Shown here in pieces: positions 3,748 through 32,000 of a DNA stretch of 57,415 bases. Where the stretch lies: NCBI GenBank assembly GCA_001938485.1, contig MQRK01240728.1, forward strand, positions 25,036-82,450, in the 5' to 3' direction. Every line of letters begins with the position of its first letter. Position 1 is the first letter of the stretch. The notes beneath the pieces were generated by a model that saw nothing but the letters and a program-made list of their open reading frames with translations, had not been told where the DNA came from and did not search any database. A program made the translations under genes and the position numbers. The stretch is from Girardia tigrina (Eukaryota).

Positions 3748-4199
3748 GTTCTTTTAATTAATGTTTATTTTAAAAAATATTTAATTAATTAAATTTTTGT
3801 AAATAATAATATTGAGACATCTTAAAAGAGTTAGAGACATTAAATTTATTTCGACGGATCACCTGTCCTCATCAGATAAATTAATTCATGAAAAACACAT
3901 TGTAATCTTCTTGCATTATTTAAATATTTGTTATTTAAATAGACAAAAGGAAACGAGATTTGAAAAAATATATTATAGACAAAATCTATCGATTTAAACA
4001 ATCGATAAAAAAAATCATTATTTTTAATTTAATAATAATTAAAAATCATTATTTTTAATTCAACAAAAATTGAATTAAAAATAATTTATTGATGAAGTAA
4101 AGTTGTCACTTTACATATGCCCCTGTGGAAGAAGAGGAGTGTCCTGGCAAGTGAACGTCGGTTTGAGACGATCAATCGATATTGTTTTGTGTTGGTCGT

Positions 4200-6610
4200 T
4201 TATATCCAGAACGAAGGTCTTCATGTCTTCAGATCGGCGCAACACTTTATAAGGTCCTTCGTATGGTGATTTGAGAGAACCGATGATGTCCCATCTTAAC
4301 CAGACTTCCGTCTACGTTGATAATGCTGATGGAACAAAGATTTTTCGTGTCAGCTGTTTCTTTACAGCCGGACTTGTAAAGCCACGAATGGCTGTTTCTA
4401 TATCTTCTTTGGAAAAAGTCGATTGATTTTCACTGTCCAAGGTAATATCTCCCGGGAGGTAAGTGGAAGAGCTGTACAATTGTTGTGCCGGTGAGGCGTT
4501 TGATCCGGTTATCGTCGAGTTCCGCAGTCCGAGCAGTACAATTGGAAGATCGTGTGCCCACGATTGCTCTGCCGTACCCGAGTAGGTTTTGAGCGCGTTC
4601 TTTAGTGANNNNNNNNNNNNNNNNNNNNNNNNNNNNNNNNNNNNNNNNNNNNNNNNNNNNNNNNNNNNNNNNNNNNNNNNNNNNNNNCACGTTTCTTTGA
4701 AATGATTTGAGAAGAATTGTCTTCCTTGGTCAGTAATAACGATTTCTGGAGGACCGAATCGGCTGATCCACGTGGAAACGAAAGCTTTCGTTACGGCAGT
4801 GGCTGTAATGTCACGGATTGGAATTACTTCGGGCCAGGACGTGTGTCTATCAATAATTGTTAAAATGAATCGCTTACCGTCGACGCTGGGAAGTGGTCCG
4901 ACTATATCCATGTGAACGACTTTAAATCTTCCTCTATCTGGTAATNNNNNNNNNNNNNNNNNNNNNNNNNNNNNNNNNNNNNNNNNNNNNNNNNNACGTG
5001 TGTCTATCAATAATTGTTAAAATGAATCGCTTACCGTCGACGCTGGGAAGTGGTCCGACTATATCCATGTGAACGACTTTAAATCTTCCTCTATCTGGTA
5101 ATGAACCCAGCTTTACTTTAGTGTGCCTGGAGATTTTGTAGGCTTGGCATCTGTGGCACTCTCTTGTCCATCGTCGTATTTCGGACTTCATCTTAGGCCA
5201 AACGTATATGGAGCGGATGAGGTCGATTGTTTTGTTGGCGCCGACATGTGCAATTCCGTGGAGTCTGCAAAATTTACGGTGGCGAAACTTGACCGGCAAA
5301 ATTATTCTTTTCTTGTGATTGGTGAGGTCGATGAACAATCCATTCTCCGTTCTGACATTAAATCTATTCCCTGAGAGTAATATAATCTTCTCTTTTTGTT
5401 GCTCGTCTATGATATCGCTCTTTGAAAGTGTTAGGATCTCCATTTCATTCTCATCATTCTCGTCCATTCTAGAAAGAAAATCGGCCACAATATTTTATGT
5501 TCCTTTGCCAAATTGGATTTGAAAGGTGAATTGGTTGAGAAACTCAATATATCTCCATTGTCTGTTCGATGGATCCTTCATTGATTGAATGTAAAGAAGT
5601 GGCTTGTGATCGGTCAATATTTTGAAACTGGATCCTTCTAAATAATGCTTGAATTTCTTGACAGCCAGGTAAATCACGAGAAGCTCTCTGTCAAACGTCG
5701 AATATCTTTTCTCTACATTGTTCAATTTCCTTGAAAAAAATGCGATCGGTGCAAGCTTGGAATTGATTTCATGGTTGAGGCTTGCTCCAACAGCGATACC
5801 AGAAGCATCAGTGCAGAGAATGAGAGATTTATTCTCGTCAAATGGCTGCATGGTGGTGATCTCTTTCAATTTCTGTTTGATTGCATTGGTAGCTTCTCGT
5901 TGGGAGGTGTTGTATACAAGTTTTTGATTTCCTTTTGATGCAGTGAGAAGAGCATGCAGAGGTGCAATAATTTGTGACAAGTTGGGAATCATCCACTGGT
6001 AGAAAGTTGCTGCACCTAGAAATCCTCTAAGAGATTTTATGTTGTTCGGTTCTGGCATGTTAATTATATTATCAATCTTTTCTATGATAGGTTTAACGCC
6101 TTCTGCGGAGATGTTAAATCCCAGGAACCGAACTGTTGGGGAGCGAAATTTACATTTATCTATATTCATCTCCATGGAGGCCTCAGCTAGTAGATTCAGT
6201 ACTGTGTACAAGTGGTTCTCGTGGTCTTCTACATTGTCTGAAAAGATAATTATATCATCAATATAGGAACACGCGAAATCTTGACATCCATGGAGCAGGG
6301 CGTCCATGTGGGGTTGAAACATTTGGGCTGCGTTTCTTAGGCCGAATGGCATCGTAGTATACTCGAATAGTCCGAACGGTGTGACAATTGCCGTCTTTGC
6401 GATATCTTTTGTGTCAATCGGAATCTGGTGGAAAGCTTTCTTTAAGTCGAGGGTGGTATAAATCGTCTTCCCAGATATTCTGTCTAGGATGTCTGAGATT
6501 CTTGGCAAAGGGTACCGGTCCGGTTTTGTGACCGAATTCAGCATTCGGTAGTCTCCACAAGGTCGAAGGTACCGTCGGTCTTTTTTACCAAAACTAACGG
6601 GGAAGCCCAA
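4200..6610 (-). pseudogene. gypsy pol (RT, RNase H, integrase) with frameshift and premature stop
   Basis: RPCGDYRMLN, YIDDII, TDASG, YSTFDRELL, TDHKPL, H..AHVG...CHRCQ, VHMDIVGPLP, ITDQGRQF, YEGPY. Frameshift near 6570; in-frame stop at 5495-5497. Confidence 0.92.
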
Positions 6611-7870
6611 GGGCTTGTGCTTCTTCTGATCGTACCTTGGAGTAATAATTGATCAAATTCTGCTCTTACCGATCTCAAAGCGTGATTTGATAATTTTCTG
6701 ACACGCTGCGCGATAGGAGGACCGGTTGTTTCGATCCGGAACGTTTGATTGCTACTGAGCGCGGTACTGACGGTGGCTTGCAGGTTGACCTTGTTGGATC
6801 CCATCATAGTGAAGCTATCTGTAAAAATTTTGTTACGGCGACAATCAACCTTAATGTCTTCATGAGCCAGGAAATCGGAACCGAGAATCGCTCGTTGAGT
6901 GTCAGCGAGGATGAAACGCCAAGAAAACAGTTTGGGTGAACCGGCCAAACGGAAACTGATCGAGTGAGTTCCAGAGGTTGAAATTTCTTGACCATTTACT
7001 GAAACAAGCTTTTGAATTGCAGAAGTGCTGTCGGCTCTGAATTGTTTTGAAGGGAGGATGCTGACATCCGCACCCGTGTCGATCAGAAATTGGATGACTT
7101 GACTGTCGGAAACCGCTGGAACGGTGAAAATCGAAGATAATTGATCTGGTGGCTTGTCGAGGGTTGGAAGTACCGGAGTGATTCCAACCCTTAGTCTTTT
7201 CCCGAAGGATTCGGGGGGGCTCCAGGTGCACGGCTTTTGACATTTCTTAGCCGCTTGTCCATACCTTCGATGATAAAAACATAAACTAGAAACCTGTTGG
7301 CCAAGATTGATTTGCTTTTTGAGTTTATTGATTTCAGCGGTCAGGAGCGCGATTTCGGTGGCGTAGGATCCGGAATTTGAAATTGTCTCACTCGAATTGA
7401 TGGCAACTGGAACTTTGATATTCAACAGATCATCAGCTAAATATGCCAATTCGGTCAGCGAGAGTGCTTTTTGGATATTCAGGAGTCTTTGGACATCGGT
7501 CGGCATTGCACGAAAAAATGCGATCCGCAAAATATTGTCATCGCTGCTTGTGGCGCCCAGGCAACGGTAGTGTCGCTGCAGGATTCTCAGATATTCTGAG
7601 GGGCGGCGGTCGCCAAGATTGTTGTTGCTGAATATTTCATCGAAATGGACTGAGACTGGAACTTTGCGACTGTTGATAATCGCATGCCGAAGATCAGAGA
7701 ACGGTGTTGCGGAATTTGATTCGAAGAATTCTTGGAACTCCGTTAATATCTGAGGAGACAGATTCGCAGTAAGATGCAAAAATTTAGTCTGTTCCGTGGA
7801 GATGTTGGAAATTCGGAATATCGCATCGATTTGCTTGAATCAGAGCTCAATATTGTCGAAGATTGGAAGA
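6538..7870 (-). pseudogene. gypsy gag plus aspartic protease
   Basis: LPIF..EL*FKQID (W to TGA), LGDRRPSEYLR, CFYHRRYGQAAKKCQKPC, FLIDTGADVSILP, ILGSDFL. Confidence 0.9.
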
Positions 7871-8523
7871 ATTTTTGGGCTTGCGTGGTTGCACTCAAGC
7901 GAACCACTTCTGACACCATTGTAATCTTCTTGCATTATTTAAATATTTGTTATTTAAATAGACAAAAGAAAACGAGATTTCAAAAATATATTATAGACAA
8001 AATCTATCGATTTAAACAATCGATAAAAAAAATCATTATTTTTAATTTAATAATAATTAAAAATCATTATTTTTAATTCAACAAAAATTGAATTAAAAAT
8101 AATTTATTGATGAAGTAAAGTTGTCACTTTACACACATGATTTATTTCTTAGGGATTCAGAAATGTTTTTAAAAATTCTTAAAATAATGTTAAATTATTC
8201 ATGCCAATGAAAATGAAGCAATTTTTTTTAAAATGTAATTATTTGATGATTGTAAAATAAATTATTTATATAAAAGCTCAGTGTTTTATCTACGTAACGA
8301 TCAAAGTTTACTGTGATCAAATCTTTTTCTTGCTTTTGCATGGCTTATTTTTTTAATTAATGCATAATAACTCCGGCTAATATGAAATTACAAGCCAAAA
8401 ATAAACAGCGTCTGCAGAACTGCTATACACACATATATAGATATAATATGAATAATATGATAGAATGATTGCAGACTTTTAAAATATTATTTAACACATG
8501 CATATAAAATATATTTATTTTAG

Positions 8524-11015: not shown

Positions 11016-11510
11016 AAATCAAGAACAGATCTGATGACAATCAATGAGCAGATTAGAGAATCGAGAAGAGAACTGGAGGATAAAGTAATCAAACTAGAAG
11101 AATATTTGGACATGAAAGAGAAATTAACGGTATGGGATATTGGTAGAATCCTAAGGAATTATCACAATGATTGGATGAACAGCTCTTATTTTTATTTAAG
11201 AAATAATCCTTACAAAATGGGCCTAAAGTTAGAGTATAGTAAATTAGAACTAAGGGTTCAGTTAGTGATCTTTTCCAGCGCAACTACCAAAGAGGTCAAT
11301 TGGCCCTTCAAAGCAAATGTAACAATCGCCGTCAAGGACAAATTCAACTCCAATTTAGCAATTTATGCAAGACGCTTCTGTGAAATCCAGAAGCCGGAAT
11401 TGAGTTCCTTTGAATCAAGCGATTTCTTCAAATTTAAGAAAGATAAAATGTTTTTTAAAGGGTTAACAACAGAATCGTTTTGTATTATAACGTGTGGATT
11501 CGAATTCTAA
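11016..11510 (+). CDS. TRAF gene, terminal exon with MATH/TRAF-C domain
   Basis: W..I, SSYFY...PYKMGLKL and NWPFKANVTI motifs typical of TRAF MATH domains; stop at 11508-11510; AATAAA near 11556. Confidence 0.8.
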   Translation, partial: KSRTDLMTINEQIRESRRELEDKVIKLEEYLDMKEKLTVWDIGRILRNYHNDWMNSSYFYLRNNPYKMGLKLEYSKLELRVQLVIFSSATTKEVNWPFKANVTIAVKDKFNSNLAIYARRFCEIQKPELSSFESSDFFKFKKDKMFFKGLTTESFCIITCGFEF

Positions 11511-17165: not shown

Positions 17166-17431
17166 AAAATTAAAATGGTGTTATTTTTGTTTAATGACTA
17201 AATTACCATTTGATTCAAAGAAATTAAATTTATTAAAAAAATATAATTAAAAAAAATAATTAAAAAATAATTTATAAAAAAATAATTAAAAAATAATTTA
17301 TAAAAAAACAATTTATAAAACGAGTCTAAAAATTTTTTTATTGAATTGGCGGAGCCTTTTTATTAAATTGGCGGAGCTAAAGCTTTTATTGAATTTTTTA
17401 AATCAATGTCAAAAAAACAGATCTCTAAAAA

Positions 17432-17980
17432 ATGGATAAATCGGATGGAAACAACATTATAGAAAATTATTATAATTATATGGAATTTAAAGATTTTTCT
17501 ACCAATTTCGAAATTTTTTATAACAATTTTATTAACAATTTTAATATCGGGAACCAAGGGCTCCATCCTTATAACGATTTTGTTAAAAATTTTAATAACA
17601 TTTCTAATAAAGGGGGCGGAGCTAAAGCTTTTATTAATGGATTTATTAATGGATTTATTTATGGTTTTAATAATAATCTTATTAACGAATTTGTTAACGA
17701 ACAATATCATGTTAACTATGAAGAATCAATTTGTGAAGAGGATAATCATAATCATATTGTATTCTATTGTATTCTTTGCAATAAATATTTTAAGGGTTGT
17801 CGAAAATTCAAAAATCATTTAAAAACTCGTAAACATTTTAATAATGAAACAAAATTAAAGGAATTGAAAAAAATATATGAGTCCCATTATACAAAATTGG
17901 TTGAAGAGTTTAGACTGAACAGACTGGAAGTTTCTCCTCGGTGTCACACTAGTCCGTTTAGTAAATATGAGAAGATGTAA
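17432..17980 (+). CDS. Asn/Phe-rich protein with a single C2H2 zinc finger, probably part of the Polinton-like fragment
   Basis: FYCILCNKYFKGCRKFKNHLKTRKH; intronless; lies next to the adenain ORF. Confidence 0.6.
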   Translation: MDKSDGNNIIENYYNYMEFKDFSTNFEIFYNNFINNFNIGNQGLHPYNDFVKNFNNISNKGGGAKAFINGFINGFIYGFNNNLINEFVNEQYHVNYEESICEEDNHNHIVFYCILCNKYFKGCRKFKNHLKTRKHFNNETKLKELKKIYESHYTKLVEEFRLNRLEVSPRCHTSPFSKYEKM

Positions 17981-23185: not shown

Positions 23186-23689
23186 TTAATATTCAAAAAT
23201 TGCCTTTCTTTTCATAAAATATATATATATATATATATGTATATATATTTCTTCATATTAACGTTTGTTTTAATATTTTGATCGTTCATATTATTGCGGT
23301 AACTCCGTAGATGTTTTTAAATGAATTAGCGATAATAGTGTAATGAATTGAAAAATAAAATTATTCACGACTATCGATTTTTATCGTTATTGAAATAAAA
23401 TTAAATGTAAACTGAATCTCATCCACCGAAATCTAATCGGAGAATTTTAGAGAAATCTAAAGTCAATCACAGGAACATAAAGCCGACGAAAATTGTAATG
23501 TTATTTGACAAGCGATTCATCAATTATCAGAGTACGGGAAGCACTGATTCTTCCTTGATATCGGCAAAGTCGGCTCGAACGACTTTAAAATCGAAGTTAT
23601 TGAAGAAAATCCAAGAATCTCTAATATCTCCGTCAATTTCCGAGTCAATAACCAAAGAAGAAAGATAAATGATAGAATTCTTCCTGTGG

Positions 23690-23866
23690 CAGGTGCACCC
23701 AGAAACTGGAATCTGTGGCAAAGCCATGCCGTGAATGATGCGTTTGAGCGGATTGCAAGTCAGGCCAGTCGATTGGTGCATTACAACAAGGAGTCGACGA
23801 TCACGAGCAGGGAGATCCAGACGGGAGTGAGATTGCTGTTGCCGGGAGAGTTGGCTAAGAACGCCG
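23690..23866 (+). pseudogene. H2B: Histone H2B internal fragment with frameshifting deletion
   Basis: [13 protein letters not shown], then (after a deletion) [45 protein letters not shown]. Confidence 0.9.
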
Positions 23867-24479
23867 CAAGCCGAAAAAGAAATACGGCCCTCTTTAGGGT
23901 CAAAATTTGTGATTGGACAGTAAAACTGACTAAAGCTGATAAAATCAAATTGGCTTTATTCGACCACAAAAGTATGATATATGTTTATTTATATTTACAT
24001 AATAATAAATTAAATAATCATAATAATAATAATGATAAAGATTATAATAAATTAAATGATAATAATAATAAAAATAATATTAAAAAACATGATGACAACG
24101 ATCTTCCTCTCCCCATTTGACGGCAAATAATATCAAAATAAGCTTCCACTGCGCTGCTGCCGCAACAACCGGTCGCAATACCGGCCACCATTGAACCCGG
24201 GACAACCCAGGTAAAAATAATGTTTGGGAGACTTGATTTGCCCAATCTTTCAGCCATTAAGCACAATACTCCTCTTAAAACTATAAATGGGTTTTAAATT
24301 TTGATTTTGAATTGAGTTTTTTTATTTATATTTCGATTTTTTATTTAAATTTGAAACCTGATTTTAGTTCGAAATAATTTATTTTGAAATTAGTTATATA
24401 ACTTTAAAACATCGTCTTGTGTTTATTTTGGTAAACTCTATTTTTATTTTCCAGTGACTCGATACAAATATTGATATTC

Positions 24480-27400
24480 TTTGTATCCCAGTCTTGATTG
24501 AAAAGAAGCAGAATAGATTCATGACAGGGGTCTACAGAAAACCAAAGGACACTGGTCTTTACAGTAGTCCAAGTAGTTTCTGTGACCCAAAATATAATAG
24601 AAATATGATTAAGGGTCTAGTGCATAGAGTTTGGAGTTTAACTTCTTCTTTTGAAATTTTTGATAAAGAAATNNNNNNNNNNNNNNNNNNNNNNNNNNNN
24701 NNNNNNNNNNNNNNNNNNNNNNNNNNNNNNNNNNNNNNNNNNNNNNNNNNNNNNNNNNNNNNNNNNNNNNNNNACAAAATTAATAAAAATTTGAATACAA
24801 CTGAGGAAGTGATTAATTCAAAAAAATTTTATTTAAAAATTCCATATTCCGAAGGTGCTAGGGATTTTAAACGAATTTTAGAAAAACAGGCCCCAGTTGG
24901 TGTTACAATTAAAGTATTGTTTCTAACTAATAAAATTTCTAATTACTTCTCAAATAAATCTAAAACACAATTGGGTATGAAAGCAAATTTAGTTTACCAA
25001 TATAAATGTCACAAGTGTGAATCCTTGTTCATTGGAGAGACAAATCGTCACCTCCGTACTAGAATTGCAAAACATACCCAATCAAGTAGAAAACGCTCAA
25101 TTTTGGACCACATAATGAAATGTCATTGTGATGCCTCACCGTTGTAAGTGGATGGTATTTGTTATTTATGCATGTGTGTGTGTGTTCTGTCCTTTATCTC
25201 TTGTCGTTTCTTTTTGCAGCGTGAGTATGTTGGACCTTGTTGTTTATTTCAGTCTTTTTATTTAACTGTTGATCTCGAGTGTTTTTTTATGTATTTGGTT
25301 TTATTTTTCACTTCCAAAAGATTATTTAATTCCATCGCAAAATCGTCGACTCGACGTCTCGGCAATTTCAAATATAACGATGAAAAGGCGTCTGAGTAAT
25401 AATAATGGGAAAATTGGATCGATGCAAAACTATCGATCTACAATACAATCACAATTAAAAATTAAGAATGTATATAATTACTTACCGTTTGTGATAAAAA
25501 AAAACGTTGGTGAATTTTTTTTGGACATTTGTCATTAACAATAAACTTATTTGAACTGAAGGTGATTTTTATTTGTTTCTTTACTGCTTTGGTTGACATT
25601 GACTTTTTGTTAACGGTTAAGAGTTATTTTATTTACTAATTATCTGTTTTTACCTATTTTCTTGTCAGTAAGAATAGTTATTCGTTTTTTCATGGCGAAT
25701 AACTATTTTTACAACTGGTGTCAGAGTCAGAGAACTCACAACAGCGCCTCACTAAAGAAACCATAGTTTTCTTTAAGACACACATACTCTTTTAATCATT
25801 ATCATAAAAAATTATGCTGAAGTCAAAAAAATATAGAAAACCAATCACAACAAATGTAAACAAAAGCCCCCACAAAACAATCACTCAATGTTCATTTATT
25901 TTACGGTGCAACCTGTTAACTTTATTTTTTCGTTTTAAATAGATTCGGGTTCGGTTATTTCAGTTCTTCCAAAACATTTAGGGTTACATCCAGATTTTTT
26001 ACCTTCTAAAGACACTAAAATCTACGCCGCAAACCAAACTGAGATTAGAACGCACGGATTCAAAAACCTCAAATTATTGTTAGGTGATAAAATTTTTTTT
26101 TGGAACTTCATCATCGCAGATGTCTCCAAAGCAATTTTAGGAGCCGACTTCCTTTCTAAATTCGATCTTTTAGTAGATTGCAAGAACAAATCCTTAATCG
26201 ACAGACACAACTTTTCTTCCATTCATTACATCCACTTAAAACAAACACAAACAAACAAACTGACATTATCGTACATTCCACGAACAAAAACTCAGAAACT
26301 CAGAGTTACACAACAAAAGACAATTTGAACAGAGACACTCATTTCAATGGAAAACATCTCCAGTACTTAGACAACAAAAGAATTAGTAATAGGATGGTTT
26401 CAGAAAATCAAACAAGTTACTCGATACATTTAGAAGACAAAGAAACACAAAAGAACGAAATAAAAATGAAAGATACATCAACATCAATCTCATTTTTTGA
26501 AGATAATAGGAAAAAGAACAGCAAAAGAACTCAGACAGAAAACCTACGAATTAATCAAGCTACACAAACAAATGATAAATCTAATTTTACAAAGATGAAA
26601 AACAATGAAACACAAACTACCGCTATAGATAAAAAAGAAGATTTTCCAACATATATCAATGATATTAACGCAATAAACAACATCTCACATCTCGAATCAC
26701 AATGGTCACTCAAAATGGAAGACAATAACCTCAAAGCAGCAAATAATATTATGGAAAATGACATTCAAGAAACAACATATAATAATTTCGAGCCATACGC
26801 TGACATTAAAGCTTTAATTAGAGACAAAAACAACAAAAAATATGAAGGACCTTACTCAATAATCGATCAAAACAAACACTCCTTCATATTAAACATTAAA
26901 GAGATTCCAACACAAATAAACGTAAAAAGATGTTAAGTGTTTTTTTATGTATTTGGTTTTATTTTTCACTTCCAAAGGATTATTTAATTCCATCGCAAAA
27001 TCGTCGACTCGACGTCTCGGCAATTTCAAATATAACGATGAAAAGGCGTCTGAGTAATAATAATGGGAAAATTGGATCGATGCAAAACTATCGATCTACA
27101 ATACAATCACAATTAAAAATTAAGAATGTATATAATTACTTACCGTTTGTGATAAAAAAAAACGTTGGTGAATTTTTTTTTGGACATTTGTCATTAACAA
27201 TAAACTTATTTGAACTGAAGGTGATTTTTATTTGTTTCTTTACTGCTTTGGTTGACATTGACTTTTTGTTAACGGTTAAGAGTTATTTTATTTACTAATT
27301 ATCTGTTTTTACCTATTTTCTTGTCAGTAAGAATAGTTATTCGTTTTTTCACGGCGAATAACTATTTTTACAGTCATGGAACTCAAAGGAGGGTATTTGA

Positions 27401-27759: not shown

Positions 27760-28586
27760 ACATGAGTGTTGCGGTTGAAAAAACAATTATAATTAAAAAC
27801 ACAAATGAAAAAACAATTATAATTAAAGACACAGGTGAAAGAGCGGTTGTAATTGGAGGCACAGGTGAAAGAGCGGTTGTAATTGGAGGCACAGGGACAG
27901 TGATGTGTATTGGACGCCGACAGAGAAGCGGTCCTGTGTCGTTGGGATCCTTTTAGCACCCTTCCTGGCGCCCGGAGAGGAGTTGGCGGCCCTAACAAGG
28001 AAAAAATTAATTAAAAACCCGACAAAAATAAATAAATCACCTCGTGAGCAACCCGGTGGACCTTCAGGGCCAGCCGACCCTCCACGAGTAGCTCTGGGCG
28101 AGCTCGATCCCTTAGCGCCGCCCGCAGGTTCGTAGCGGTTCCCCGAGAGAAGATACACCCTGAGGAAAAAACAAAGAAATATTAATCAAATAACAAAGAC
28201 TAATTAAAAAACTTACCCTCGGAGCTAAAAATAGCATCAATGTCCTCAATTGACCGCATGCTGATACATCACCTGCAGATGTAGGTCGGCACACGGACAG
28301 CGAATCCTATAATGAAAAACGAAAATATCAAAAATTTCAAAAATCTAAACGACCTACATACCCAGCCATCCAATCGGGAATCCGGAAAAGTCAGACCATC
28401 CCGACCATTGGTGGAACCTGGAACCGGTGTGTCGTCCTGCAAGTATAAAAGGAATAGTCTAAAACATAAAAGTTGCCACTCATAATAACATAAAACAAAC
28501 GACAACAAAACGACAGCACTTCAAAACGTATAACAACAAACAAAAGGAAAAAACAAAAACACAAAACGCTACGTACCTCCGTGACA
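27760..28586 (-). other. GC-rich multi-exon module beginning with an LTR-like TGTCACG end
   Basis: The minus strand shows GC-rich blocks separated by ~50-60 nt T-rich GT...AG intron-like spacers; TGTCACGG starts at 28586. Confidence 0.45.
27777..27896. repeat. 4 x 30-bp tandem repeat
   Basis: Units start at 27777, 27807, 27837 and 27867. Consensus of units 3-4 is GAAAGAGCGGTTGTAATTGGAGGCACAGGT. Confidence 0.95.
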
Positions 28587-29693
28587 TTTCAGCTCGACAA
28601 AATTTGGGATTACCGATGTAATTTTATTTGTTGTTATCTTAATATTATTACTACTATTGATTTCATGTTTTCACTATTCAATTATTTTTGTTTATAACTA
28701 TTCGTTCCGTGCATAAATATATTTGTGCGTAGTCCGTAAGTTGTCGTAGTTAACCGTCGCCGCCGTCCTATTCATCATGCCCCACTTCTCGGAATTATCC
28801 GGTTCGTCGTCTGAGGAAAACGACGCACCGTCGCTCTTGATCCTCGACGTACGATCGATCGACATGATCGCATTCGTTAGTGGGGACCTCGTTACGACGT
28901 GGCTCCACGTTTGGGCTCCGGAAGTCTCGAGCTGTCGGGCGAGATAATCTCGCGCAGATCCATTGAAAATTCCGTTCGTATTCGATTAGCAAAATTTGTT
29001 TTATCAACAGTGATATGTCACTTAATTGACACATTTAAACAAACGGAATTCTTTCTAATTTCTTTTATTATCAATATATTTTAATCGATTTTATCATGAC
29101 TTGGAAATTATTGTTTTATTATAGGACCAATTTCACGACATTTTATATTTTAATTTAATTTTATTTTTTTTTGCTTGAGAATCGCAAAACTATATCGAGT
29201 TCGTTTAGGAACTATTTCGACTCTAAATTTGAATTCCAATTTAGGTTATAAGCTCAAAATTAGTAGTCATGGATCTAAATCAGATAAAGTTCTATGAATT
29301 CAATACAAAAAAATTTTTTTTTAATTTTCAGTTTTAAAACTCAATTCAGGTGAGGATTCAGGTTTAAGTCAATTGCGATTCTACAGAATTTAGTTCGAAT
29401 ATTTTACGTCTGTTGCTTAATGAATTTGATTGATTGAGAGTCGACGTGAGAGGAGGTTTTGAATAAAATTTTCGAACTACGACGCGGATACTTATATAAT
29501 TACTAATTTCGTCCTTAATAATAATTTCGCAGTTGAATATTAATTTTCTAAGAATTATGGTTAAGAATTATGTAGTTAAGAAAGCTATAAGGGTTCGATT
29601 AATCAGTGTTAATTAGCGAGTCGAATTAATACCCGTCAAACTGCGAGCACTAGCTTTAGAACACTACTTGACGATGACTGGGCTATCGGAGTC

Positions 29694-30270
29694 TGTAACG
29701 ACCGCGGTCAATAGATGTTTATAGCTACGTCATTAACGTTGTACGAATTAGACAAAAGGCGGATGCTGTTGATGTTTAGGTCCGATAACTTCTGAGTGAT
29801 TAAATTTCAGTGACCACATCAGGACCGCGTGGGTTAATGATTGTCGAACTAGTGTAGGAAGACTGTCAAAACATACAGTGCCACAAGTCAATATGAACAC
29901 AACAGCCAAGCGCACTAAGCCGCATGCAAATATAACATTGCCATAAGTTAATCCTACATATCACACACGATANNNNNNNNNNNNNNNNNNNNNNNNNNNN
30001 NNNNNNNNNNNNNNNNNNNNNNNNNNNNNNNNNNNNNNNNNNNNNNNNNNNNNNNNNNNNNNNNNNNNNNNNNNNNNNNNNNNNNNNNNNNNNNNNNNNN
30101 NNNNNNNNNNNNNNNNNNGTCCGACCCAGAGTAGATGAGGAGTTAAGTTAAGGAATAAGATAATCTGATAAATGGGTCGTGGCTAACCCTTAATAGTCAC
30201 TGGGGGCTCAGAGTCTGCAAAAATGTTTTAAACATAAGGGTCGTGACATTTTTGGGGGCTCAGCCGGGAT
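29694..30270 (+). mobile_element. LTR 3' end and tRNA-Pro primer binding site
   Basis: GGTCGTGACA ends at 30248. TGGGGGCTCAGCCGGGAT at 30253-30270 matches the canonical Pro PBS TGGGGGCTCGTCCGGGAT at 16/18. A candidate LTR start TGTAACGACC lies at 29694. Confidence 0.7.
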
Positions 30271-30398
30271 TAGCGAGTTTCTCGCCCCTAAATAGTTAAG
30301 ATTTCAATAACTAATAACGACACATAGTTAATTATGTAATAGAGTATGAATTATAGTAATAAAGTATAATAAAATAATCGTTAATGAACTTATAGAGA

Positions 30399-30770
30399 AT
30401 GGAACAGAAACAGAAGCCAATAGCAGTGGTAAGACCGATGCCACGTGATCCAGTGATCGTCGAAATCGAAGAGCTAATTCGTGCGTTAGCCAAACTGATT
30501 CTCCAAAGAAAGGACGACCAGNNNNNNNNNNNNNNNNNNNNNNNNNNNNNNNNNNNNNNNNNNNNNNNNNNNNNNNNNNNACCCGAGTTAAAGGCTCTCA
30601 ACGAACACATAGAAGGGAAATTAGAAGAATTCAAACTACGAATTCAACAGCTGAATCCCAATGAATATCCCGACTTTTGGGGATGTTATCGAGAACTCTG
30701 CAAACTACAAAGTCAAGACGAAAGGCCGACTGAAAATTTATGGCATGGATACGGCTATAGCGTCGTATAA
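30399..30770 (+). CDS. Small helical ORF A downstream of the PBS (unknown function)
   Basis: 123-aa ORF with an internal N gap; AG shortly before the ATG; PRD..IVEIEELI motif. Confidence 0.55.
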   Translation: MEQKQKPIAVVRPMPRDPVIVEIEELIRALAKLILQRKDDQXXXXXXXXXXXXXXXXXXXXPELKALNEHIEGKLEEFKLRIQQLNPNEYPDFWGCYRELCKLQSQDERPTENLWHGYGYSVV

Positions 30771-30882
30771 CCGACAATAAACTATTATTTTTTTTTCTGT
30801 TTCGTGAAATAAATATTTTAGTGATTAATTTGTCTATAAAGTAGTTAGATAAAAGGATTAGTTTAATATAGTATATTAATAG

Positions 30883-31236
30883 ATGCAGACAGAACCCAGA
30901 GACGCCCGGCAACCAACAATTCAAGAACTGTTCGAAGAGGCCGATCGATTGAAACACCGACTTCAAAGACTAGAAAGCTGGCAACATGATCGAGAGCAAC
31001 GGTACAACCAGTACAACCAACGAGTTAAAAAGTTAGAAGCCGATAAAGCATCCAAAGGAAAAATACAAATCTACCAAGAAATAAGAAGAAAGGCTCATGT
31101 TGGTATTCTGATCGCGCAGGATTCAATATTCCGAACCCAAAATGATACTTTAGTTTGTTTAAGCAAAATTAAGGACATATTAACTGCAGATCAAACCCAA
31201 TTAACCGGGGGTGATGTTGATAAAACTTTTCTTTAA
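30883..31236 (+). CDS. Small coiled-coil ORF B (unknown function)
   Basis: 117-aa ORF; TAATAG immediately before the ATG; PRD...TIQELFEEA motif. Confidence 0.55.
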   Translation: MQTEPRDARQPTIQELFEEADRLKHRLQRLESWQHDREQRYNQYNQRVKKLEADKASKGKIQIYQEIRRKAHVGILIAQDSIFRTQNDTLVCLSKIKDILTADQTQLTGGDVDKTFL

Positions 31237-31330
31237 TTCTGTTCAAATATATATATATATATAATTGTAGCTTAATCGTGATAAAATAGTTAATAATTTT
31301 GGTAAATAATACTCTATTTGTTATTCTAGC

Positions 31331-31598
31331 ATGAATCTAGAAGAGAGTCCTGCACAACCACCAAAAAACATACCACGAGAAGAGATGTTCCGAGAAGTTG
31401 AAGCGTTACTCGAAGAGGCCATACTTACAACCGCTGAGCACTACAAATGCGCAGAACATAGGAATCGACTAGTCAGGGATATACGCCAGATGAAGAATGT
31501 GGGACCAACCAGTATCCACACCCTACAATTATGGCAAGGCAAAGTCGAGAGCGCCAGGAAGAAGGTAGACGAGCAACTGGGAATTCGAATACGAAACA
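31331..31598 (+). CDS. Small helical ORF C (3' end replaced by a formin fragment)
   Basis: TTCTAGc before the ATG; PREEMFREVEALLEEA motif. Confidence 0.5.
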
Positions 31599-31925
31599 AA
31601 CAATGGTCTGAATCTTCTTCTGGATGTTTTGAGCACTCTTACTGAATCTCCTATCAATTGCGACATTTGCCTTGTATGTATTATGGCTTTTGTCATTGTC
31701 GGATTTGGATTCTTCAGAGTTTTAGAAAACGATAGAGCACTTCTATTGATCGCCAAATGTTTCAAGCCACAGATCCAGGATACGATGTTCTATGCAGTAG
31801 AATTGTTGAGGACGTTTGTAGTTTATAAAGAATATAGCTATCAGAAAGTGCTTAATGCGTTATCGAATGCGGCGAAAATAAATAATTACGCTAATCGGTT
31901 TTATCCGTTAATTGAATCTTTTATC
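31599..31925 (+). pseudogene. Diaphanous-related formin GBD/FH3 (DID) exon fragment
   Basis: GLNLLLDVL...CIMAF...FG...VLENDRALLLIAKCFKPQIQDTMFYAVELL...QKVLNALS..A......RFYPLIESF parallels DIAPH GLASLLDIL...CLKAFMNNKFG..MLE....ILLLVRAMDPAVPNMM..AAKLL...ERVLEAMT...RFQPLLDGL (recalled). Confidence 0.75.
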
Positions 31926-32000
31926 CGTTAATCTATTGAATCAAGACCATTTTCACAACCACGTCTATTGTCCCTATAGAATAATAATTATTATTATTAT

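Follow-up and report, generated by a model that had tools for sequence, protein, structure and literature searches.

Clusters of A-to-G changes of the ADAR type are known from avian retroviruses, namely from the LTR U3 region of a RAV-1 variant (Felder 1994) and from an inverted repeat of ALV (Hajjar and Linial 1995). As recounted in PMC12925331 and PMC8586724, these are isolated variants of exogenous viruses. In polyomaviruses, ADAR acts on the sense-antisense duplex formed where the 3' ends of the early and late transcripts overlap; these are DNA viruses, and such edits are not copied into the genome (PMC12925331). LTR elements of vertebrate genomes carry traces of DNA editing by APOBEC enzymes, and 19 invertebrate genomes were negative under a G-to-A filter, which, as described, retained alignments with G-to-A but not A-to-G changes (Knisbacher and Levanon; PMC4866542). 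Giant gypsy elements of Dugesiidae planarians, Burro/GYPSM1, have been described by Arkhipova and Yushenova (PMC6431247), and an account of the expression and piRNA control of Burro is also available (PMC8532177).

The window considered here, a stretch of 57,415 nucleotides from Girardia tigrina, contains one LTR of a Burro-like element. As in the avian cases, sense-strand A-to-G clusters are found in U3, about half of the adenines are changed, and the changes would have entered DNA by reverse transcription (PMC12925331, PMC8586724). Unlike the avian cases, they occupy a fixed zone of 70-130 nt in an endogenous invertebrate family, where they are recurrent, inherited and apparently accumulated over rounds. 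As in vertebrate APOBEC editing, a strand-specific clustered footprint of the deaminase type is fixed in genomic LTR copies, whereas the vertebrate editing has the opposite direction (G to A), acts on cDNA and is spread along the element (PMC4866542). Judged from the sequences compared below, the footprint probably reflects ADAR hyper-editing of the element RNA fixed by reverse transcription, in several rounds and with edited copies still transposing.

The 5' LTR of the element occupies positions 27768..30248 (about 2.5 kb, TG...CA ends, plus strand in the sense direction), with a gap of Ns at 29973-30118. Its borders follow from flanks, shared ends and target duplications. A search of the genome gave 1374 candidates, and the 40 copies scored among them all begin at one TG motif, at 27768 in the window, upstream of which the flanks are unrelated among copies. 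The 3' end is common to the relatives and is followed either by an unrelated flank or by a PBS-like tract; 4-bp target duplications occur at both solo and full-length relatives. This tract, which we take to resemble a tRNA-type PBS, lies directly after the LTR at 30249..30270 (plus strand) and follows the LTR end at four loci, two of which are overlapping stretches of one place. The start of the internal region occupies 30249..31579 (plus strand) and is 90-93% identical to contig C236188 and 74-81% identical to contig C227859. The remainder of the element is absent from the window, where tblastx with the later ORFs of the element gave no match except generic pol domains of other elements. A candidate LTR of 820 bp ending at 28586 was wrong, as the LTR extends to 30248. 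An LTR-end-like motif (..GTGACA) is repeated internally at 28570-28586, 820 bp into the LTR, and marks a junction of LTR modules apparently swapped among subfamilies.

A full-length relative is found on C227859 (31463-60179; L082, L083, L048, L084). It measures 28,717 bp between the outer ends of its two LTRs and is flanked by a 4-bp target duplication. Its interior encodes a Ty3 capsid, a CCHC knuckle, a ubiquitin-like domain, a fusion glycoprotein, PR, a weak dUTPase, RT, RH and IN, the gag, ubiquitin and dUTPase matches being below the Pfam cut-offs. The glycoprotein is of the Monjiviricetes type (E 1e-25) and lies between gag and pol, as an env-like gene. The gag-pol genes have the same orientation as the plus strand of the window, which is thus the sense strand. 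The ORFs of this copy are interrupted by stops and gaps, and two 3' ORF pieces, of 852 and 473 aa, have no clear Pfam match. Set beside the published description of Burro/GYPSM1 (PMC6431247), the element matches a Burro-like giant gypsy by its sequence: it shares the length of about 29 kb, gag with a CCHC knuckle, the ubiquitin-like domain, the fusion glycoprotein between gag and pol, and the weak dUTPase between PR and RT. It differs from Burro/GYPSM1 in its 2.5 kb LTR and in that BCL2-like, BIR, MATH and ankyrin domains gave no Pfam match in the 16 ORF pieces of C227859 scanned, some of these domains having been assigned by HHpred in PMC6431247. The accessible part of that description does not mention editing or antisense spliced LTR RNA, both of which are putative features of the element considered here.

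Four 30-nt tandem units, starting at 27777, 27807, 27837 and 27867, are situated at the start of U3, 9 bases into the LTR (27777..27896, plus strand). Taking unit 3, with its 12 G, as the reference, unit 1 has 11 G/A changes, unit 2 has eight, unit 4 differs in its last base, and there are no other changes, exactly as counted in the earlier note. Relative to the all-A state of the family, unit 1 is all-A, unit 2 has three A-to-G changes, and units 3 and 4 have 11 each. With the share of A/G among mismatches in the LTR middle of eight copies as the background (456/1243), the probability that 11 of 11 differences are A/G is about 1.6e-5, or about 1.6e-8 if all have a single direction. The exact G-rich unit occurs at three places in the 1.43-Gb genome, two in the window and one on C215221, the flanks on the two contigs being different, and the all-A unit accounts for 33 of 56 pattern matches; thus an assembly artefact is unlikely as the source of the G-rich units. 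As the C215221 copy has one G-rich unit and the window copy two, units 3 and 4 are likely a pair duplicated after the editing event, and not units 1 and 2, for which shared changes by duplication had been suggested.

The tract of clustered A-to-G changes, delimited by comparing the window copy, pair by pair, with real copies that are A-rich or less changed, is 27828..27930 (plus strand). The first change is in unit 2, and the last is just 5' of a GC-rich block, about 35 bases past the units. Thus the earlier interpretation as a clustered, strand-specific footprint in a retroelement stands, but not its restriction to the repeat, since the tract runs on to 27930 and recurs in many copies.

In the genome, a unit pattern degenerate for A/G has 56 matches: 33 all-A, five with one or two G, and 18 with at least three G, the latter forming 10 patterns. 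None of the 42 matches to a control pattern degenerate for C/T has more than two changes. In family copies, the A-to-G changes run past the units up to the GC-rich block. Over 70 nt common to 35 copies (36 were found, and L075 was dropped as misaligned), there are 20 haplotypes, 14 of them with at least four G (19/35 copies). Of the 41 A sites, 38 are occupied by G in at least one copy, and 245 of 703 site pairs are incompatible by the four-gamete test. Recombination can cause such incompatibility, but a two-parent mosaic of all-A and all-G sequences would need 7-19 switches in 70 nt. Five close copy pairs, picked by eye and not fully independent as they share a common history, differ by 68 A-to-G, three G-to-A, one T-to-C and two C-to-T changes and three transversions.

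Two further subfamilies (L006/L028 and L002/L007) have A-to-G clusters in unrelated sequence at the same place. Runs of five A/G or T/C mismatches were not observed in the LTR middle (eight copies) or the LTR 3' end (14 copies); the mismatches in the LTR middle of the eight copies include 456 A/G and 437 C/T. In the region 27920-28499 of 47 copies there are 50 distinct A/G runs vs eight T/C runs, and 35 of the 50 are centred in 27900-27999. Identical G patterns are found at different insertion sites, as seen from their different flanks, and the two LTRs of C227859 are identical over 486 nt, including the G pattern.

These data largely refute an origin by ordinary drift, by selection on a peptide or by misassembly, an explanation with hardly any remaining probability. 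The sequence is indeed of low complexity and A-rich, and the assembly is a fragmented short-read one (255,254 contigs). However, p is about 1e-5 or less for the units alone, the same G-rich unit is present on two contigs, and the G-bearing units form ten patterns with changes in purines only.

The direction of the changes on the sense strand is very probably A to G, as suggested by comparison of sequences within the genome of one species. A 12-base motif within the tract has the all-A form at 45 of 71 loci, diverged subfamilies among them, and is G-bearing 19 times. Where a single LTR contains the motif twice, the upstream copy is all-A and the downstream one G-rich. Almost all copies have upstream units of the all-A type. 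A G-rich ancestor would be about 60% G, given the 38 of 41 A sites that are G somewhere, in a genome with 30% GC. Collecting other copies of the region, as the earlier note had advised, identifies A as the family state (33/56). One tree placement goes against this polarity. When the LTR sequence downstream of the tract was used for a tree of 22 of the 36 rows (14 were dropped for N or length), the A-rich copy L047 was nested among the G-rich copies L061 and L069 with 99/98 support, and the A-rich or G-rich label needs at least three changes. The placement of L047 would require recombination at the tract boundary or a reversal, and by their sequences the LTRs look like mosaics.

The title and first option of the earlier note assumed the opposite polarity, G to A, by APOBEC/AID-like C-to-U deamination of the minus-strand cDNA, which would have turned a G-rich ancestor into an A-rich family. 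Sense-strand G-to-A change is the known signature of such editing (PMC4866542), GG sites would be the ones most often lost (31/47), and the nesting of the A-rich L047 among G-rich copies is in favour of this explanation. However, A is the state of the diverged subfamilies and of the upstream units and duplicate motifs, an ancestor with G at 38 of 41 sites would have to be assumed, and the terminal 11 nt beside the units retain their G. A search for host deaminases of this type, another check advised earlier, gave no genome matches to the APOBEC_N and APOBEC4_like profiles (PF08210 and PF18774); these are weak negatives, as the assembly is fragmented and PF18774 had no match in any control either. 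According to the published accounts, editing of this kind was absent from 19 invertebrate genomes (PMC4866542), and the sole flatworm AID/APOBEC-like match is identical to that of its snail host (PMC5889660). Given the A state of diverged subfamilies and upstream units and the lack of matches to the two profiles, the G-to-A option is disfavoured, and we consider it highly improbable.

The frequency of change depends on the 5' neighbour. In the five pairs, the changed adenines constitute 22/30 after T, 30/41 after A, 9/23 after C and 7/25 after G (P=0.0013; over a wider span, P=9e-6). Adenines after G are spared relative to all other contexts (7/25 vs 61/94, P=0.001). Both the order of the neighbours and the sparing of A after G are as in ADARs, whose reported preference is U/A > C > G (PMC8586724). 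If the same sites are read as G-to-A changes, G before A is lost in 7/26 cases and G before G in 31/47. Thus the neighbour pattern alone does not decide between the polarities, as an APOBEC3G-like enzyme could give the reverse pattern. ADARs also favour G as the 3' neighbour, more weakly than they select the 5' one. Here adenines followed by G changed at 37 of 51 sites over haplotypes, and the pooled pairs demonstrate no preference (16/32 vs 70/127, P=0.69).

Candidate enzymes are present in the host. The genome has 20 matches to PF02137 in ADAR-type exons, and three exon pieces are closest, among solved structures, to the deaminase domains of human ADAR1 or ADAR2. Planarian ADAR1 and ADAR2 have been described, with expression also alongside neoblast markers; as reported for S. 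mediterranea, the ADAR2-dependent sites, with one exception, lie outside known transposable elements (PMC8797187), which speaks against the ADAR explanation. The 68 A-to-G changes vs one T-to-C change and the sparing of A after G make A-to-I editing by ADAR, fixed by reverse transcription, the best fit; this had been the second option of the earlier note.

A DNA-stage adenine-directed process acting after integration, such as hypermutation of the TpA type or R-loop deamination at the edge of the LTR, is a very faint possibility. Adenines change most often after T (22/30), as such a process would have it, but those after A do so as often, and a single strand is affected (68 A-to-G vs one T-to-C). 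Moreover, the tests made detected no clusters in the flanking DNA or in the rest of the LTR, and the identical patterns at different insertion sites show copying through RNA.

An error of the reverse transcriptase is unlikely, although it would need no deaminase. Plus-strand synthesis starts at the polypurine tract, adjacent to the A-rich stretch, and G placed opposite T when dATP is short would give sense A-to-G changes. This has the right strand and direction, the A-to-G tract is within about 160 nt of the plus-strand start, and a duplex, none of which was found in cis, is unnecessary. However, the A-runs nearest to the plus-strand start are the unchanged ones, the tract keeps its place beside the GC-rich block in LTRs with anything from one to five upstream units, and the sparing of A after G fits ADAR. 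The agreement between both C227859 LTRs also speaks against such an error, though inheritance gives the same result.

Editing by ADAR would require a double-stranded substrate, and the avian ALV case, with its inverted repeat, is different in this respect. Here no arm in an inverted-repeat scan of four regions exceeded 38 nt, the arms matching at about 71-78%, and there was no long hairpin. When two A-rich segments were scanned for duplexes with six loci, all pairings were loose. Six copies were also folded; their helices in the tract measure 7-10 bp, none being longer than 10 bp, with z from -3.4 to 0.2. A hairpin or a long-range duplex in cis was rejected for these reasons.

As no long hairpin was found in cis, we propose an antisense partner. 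The minus strand of the LTR contains three candidate introns with GT..AG borders. Antisense intron 1 (28307..28361, 55 nt) has the acceptor AG in 45 of 47 copies, and antisense intron 2 (28160..28216, 57 nt) is a candidate in 46 of 47 copies by reading of the scan output. Predicted antisense intron 3 (27992..28040, 49 nt) has the donor GT in 46 of 47 copies and the acceptor AG in 37 of 47. At least one antisense candidate is present in all 47 copies, whereas sense-strand candidates were found in none of them. Contigs of four public runs were searched for spliced forms. The joint of intron 2, 28158-28216 (57 nt, CT..AC), is present in one contig of a run presumed to be RNA (X3). Another contig of this presumed RNA run, from a related subfamily, joins 28306-28365 in the intron 1 region with three letters between. 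Neither joint is present in the contigs of the DNA run X1, and intron 3 had no spliced contig in the four runs. Of 64 copies scanned for antisense poly(A) sites, with no control, 47 have AATATA and three AATAAA on the minus strand.

The region 27992-28361 is a conserved, apparently spliced antisense transcription unit in the LTR with GC-rich exons (50-65%) in a genome with 30% GC. An origin of these exons by old saturated edits was unsupported, A after G being only slightly enriched. The A-to-G tract falls in the last predicted antisense exon, downstream of intron 3. The inner antisense exons are nearly free of clusters, with one run among eight close copies, and purine transitions exceed pyrimidine transitions in the intron columns as well. 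The antisense model gives no reason for the near-clean inner exons. Selection acting there might be one, or else editing near the antisense 3' end, by analogy with the polyomavirus overlap as outlined in PMC12925331. On the sequence evidence, a spliced antisense RNA from U3 is a candidate duplex partner of the genomic RNA with an even chance of being the right one.

Protein coding by the antisense exons is not supported. Phase 0 of exon 2 is open in 30 of 47 copies. Exon 3 has a length of 119 nt in 46 of 47, but its matching phase is open in just 19 of 47; no codon periodicity was found in the antisense exon columns of the 47 copies. The minus-strand translation with PVPPITTALS repeats reported earlier is correct in its letters, but the frame has a stop 20 codons upstream and no ATG between. 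The hydrophobic segment just before a stop, presented there as a protein feature, therefore lies in a frame with no start codon and with no codon periodicity in the exon columns, which also argues against selection for a peptide as the source of the changes. It is a by-product of the U-rich antisense sequence.

The ADAR mechanism that we favour may be outlined as follows. The sense genomic RNA of the element would pair with the last exon of the spliced antisense RNA transcribed from within U3, and ADAR would edit A to I in the sense RNA at the outer end of U3. During minus-strand synthesis the reverse transcriptase would read inosine as G, so that the change would appear in both LTRs. Editing would occur in several rounds, each putting more G into an already edited lineage. 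As separate insertion sites share a pattern, and so do the two LTRs of C227859, edited elements seem to have gone on transposing. In the window copy, unit 3 would have been duplicated after editing. As the changes stand in the genome, editing would take place in stem or germ cells. The proposed sense-antisense duplex resembles that of the polyomavirus early/late overlap (PMC12925331), and a spliced antisense RNA, not an inverted repeat as in ALV, would be the likely partner.

More tentatively, and with somewhat less confidence than in the antisense partner, we suggest that the element's own spliced U3 antisense RNA directs the ADAR of the host to a single zone of the genomic RNA. As the edited genomes stay transposable, host editing would act on the LTR as a local, heritable ratchet from A to G, and the genome would preserve a fossil record of ADAR at work in the stem or germ cells of planarians.

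In retroviral DNA, ADAR footprints have been described as rare one-off variants. In one subfamily of the present element, about half of the copies (19/35) have such a footprint. The deaminase footprints fixed in LTR elements so far have been those of APOBEC in vertebrates, with invertebrates as the negative control in the account of PMC4866542. Among the reports listed, mostly outside subscription journals, on retroelement editing, planarian ADARs, Burro and invertebrate APOBEC-like genes, we found none of an inherited recurrent A-to-G footprint in an invertebrate LTR element. If the proposed mechanism is true, an invertebrate genome repeatedly acquires heritable mutations through RNA editing, and the ADARs of planarians encounter the RNA of retroelements in cells whose DNA is transmitted. 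It would then be testable by RNAi in a standard model whether ADAR restricts retroelements or merely mutates them. LTRs of other invertebrates can be screened for A-to-G-only clusters beside antisense introns.

Two further observations concern other members of the family. On C169377 (L051:6956-7109), a second family LTR is inverted, about 6.6 kb from the first. On C250804 (L092), a 59-nt segment over the unit and the editing zone is triplicated, every copy being in the A state.

The window contains several other features. A small Ty3/gypsy element on the minus strand at 3898-8133 has 218-bp LTRs that are 98.6% identical and gag-PR-RT-RH-IN in pieces. Just upstream of the LTR, 437-bp direct repeats at 25278-25713 and 26936-27372 (99.3% identical) surround about 1.2 kb and are perhaps a small non-autonomous LTR element. 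Weak Pfam matches were observed to MATH (11016-11510), a dsRNA-binding C2H2 zinc finger (17429-17980), a histone fold (23548-24120) and the Diaphanous GTPase-binding domain (31569-31931).
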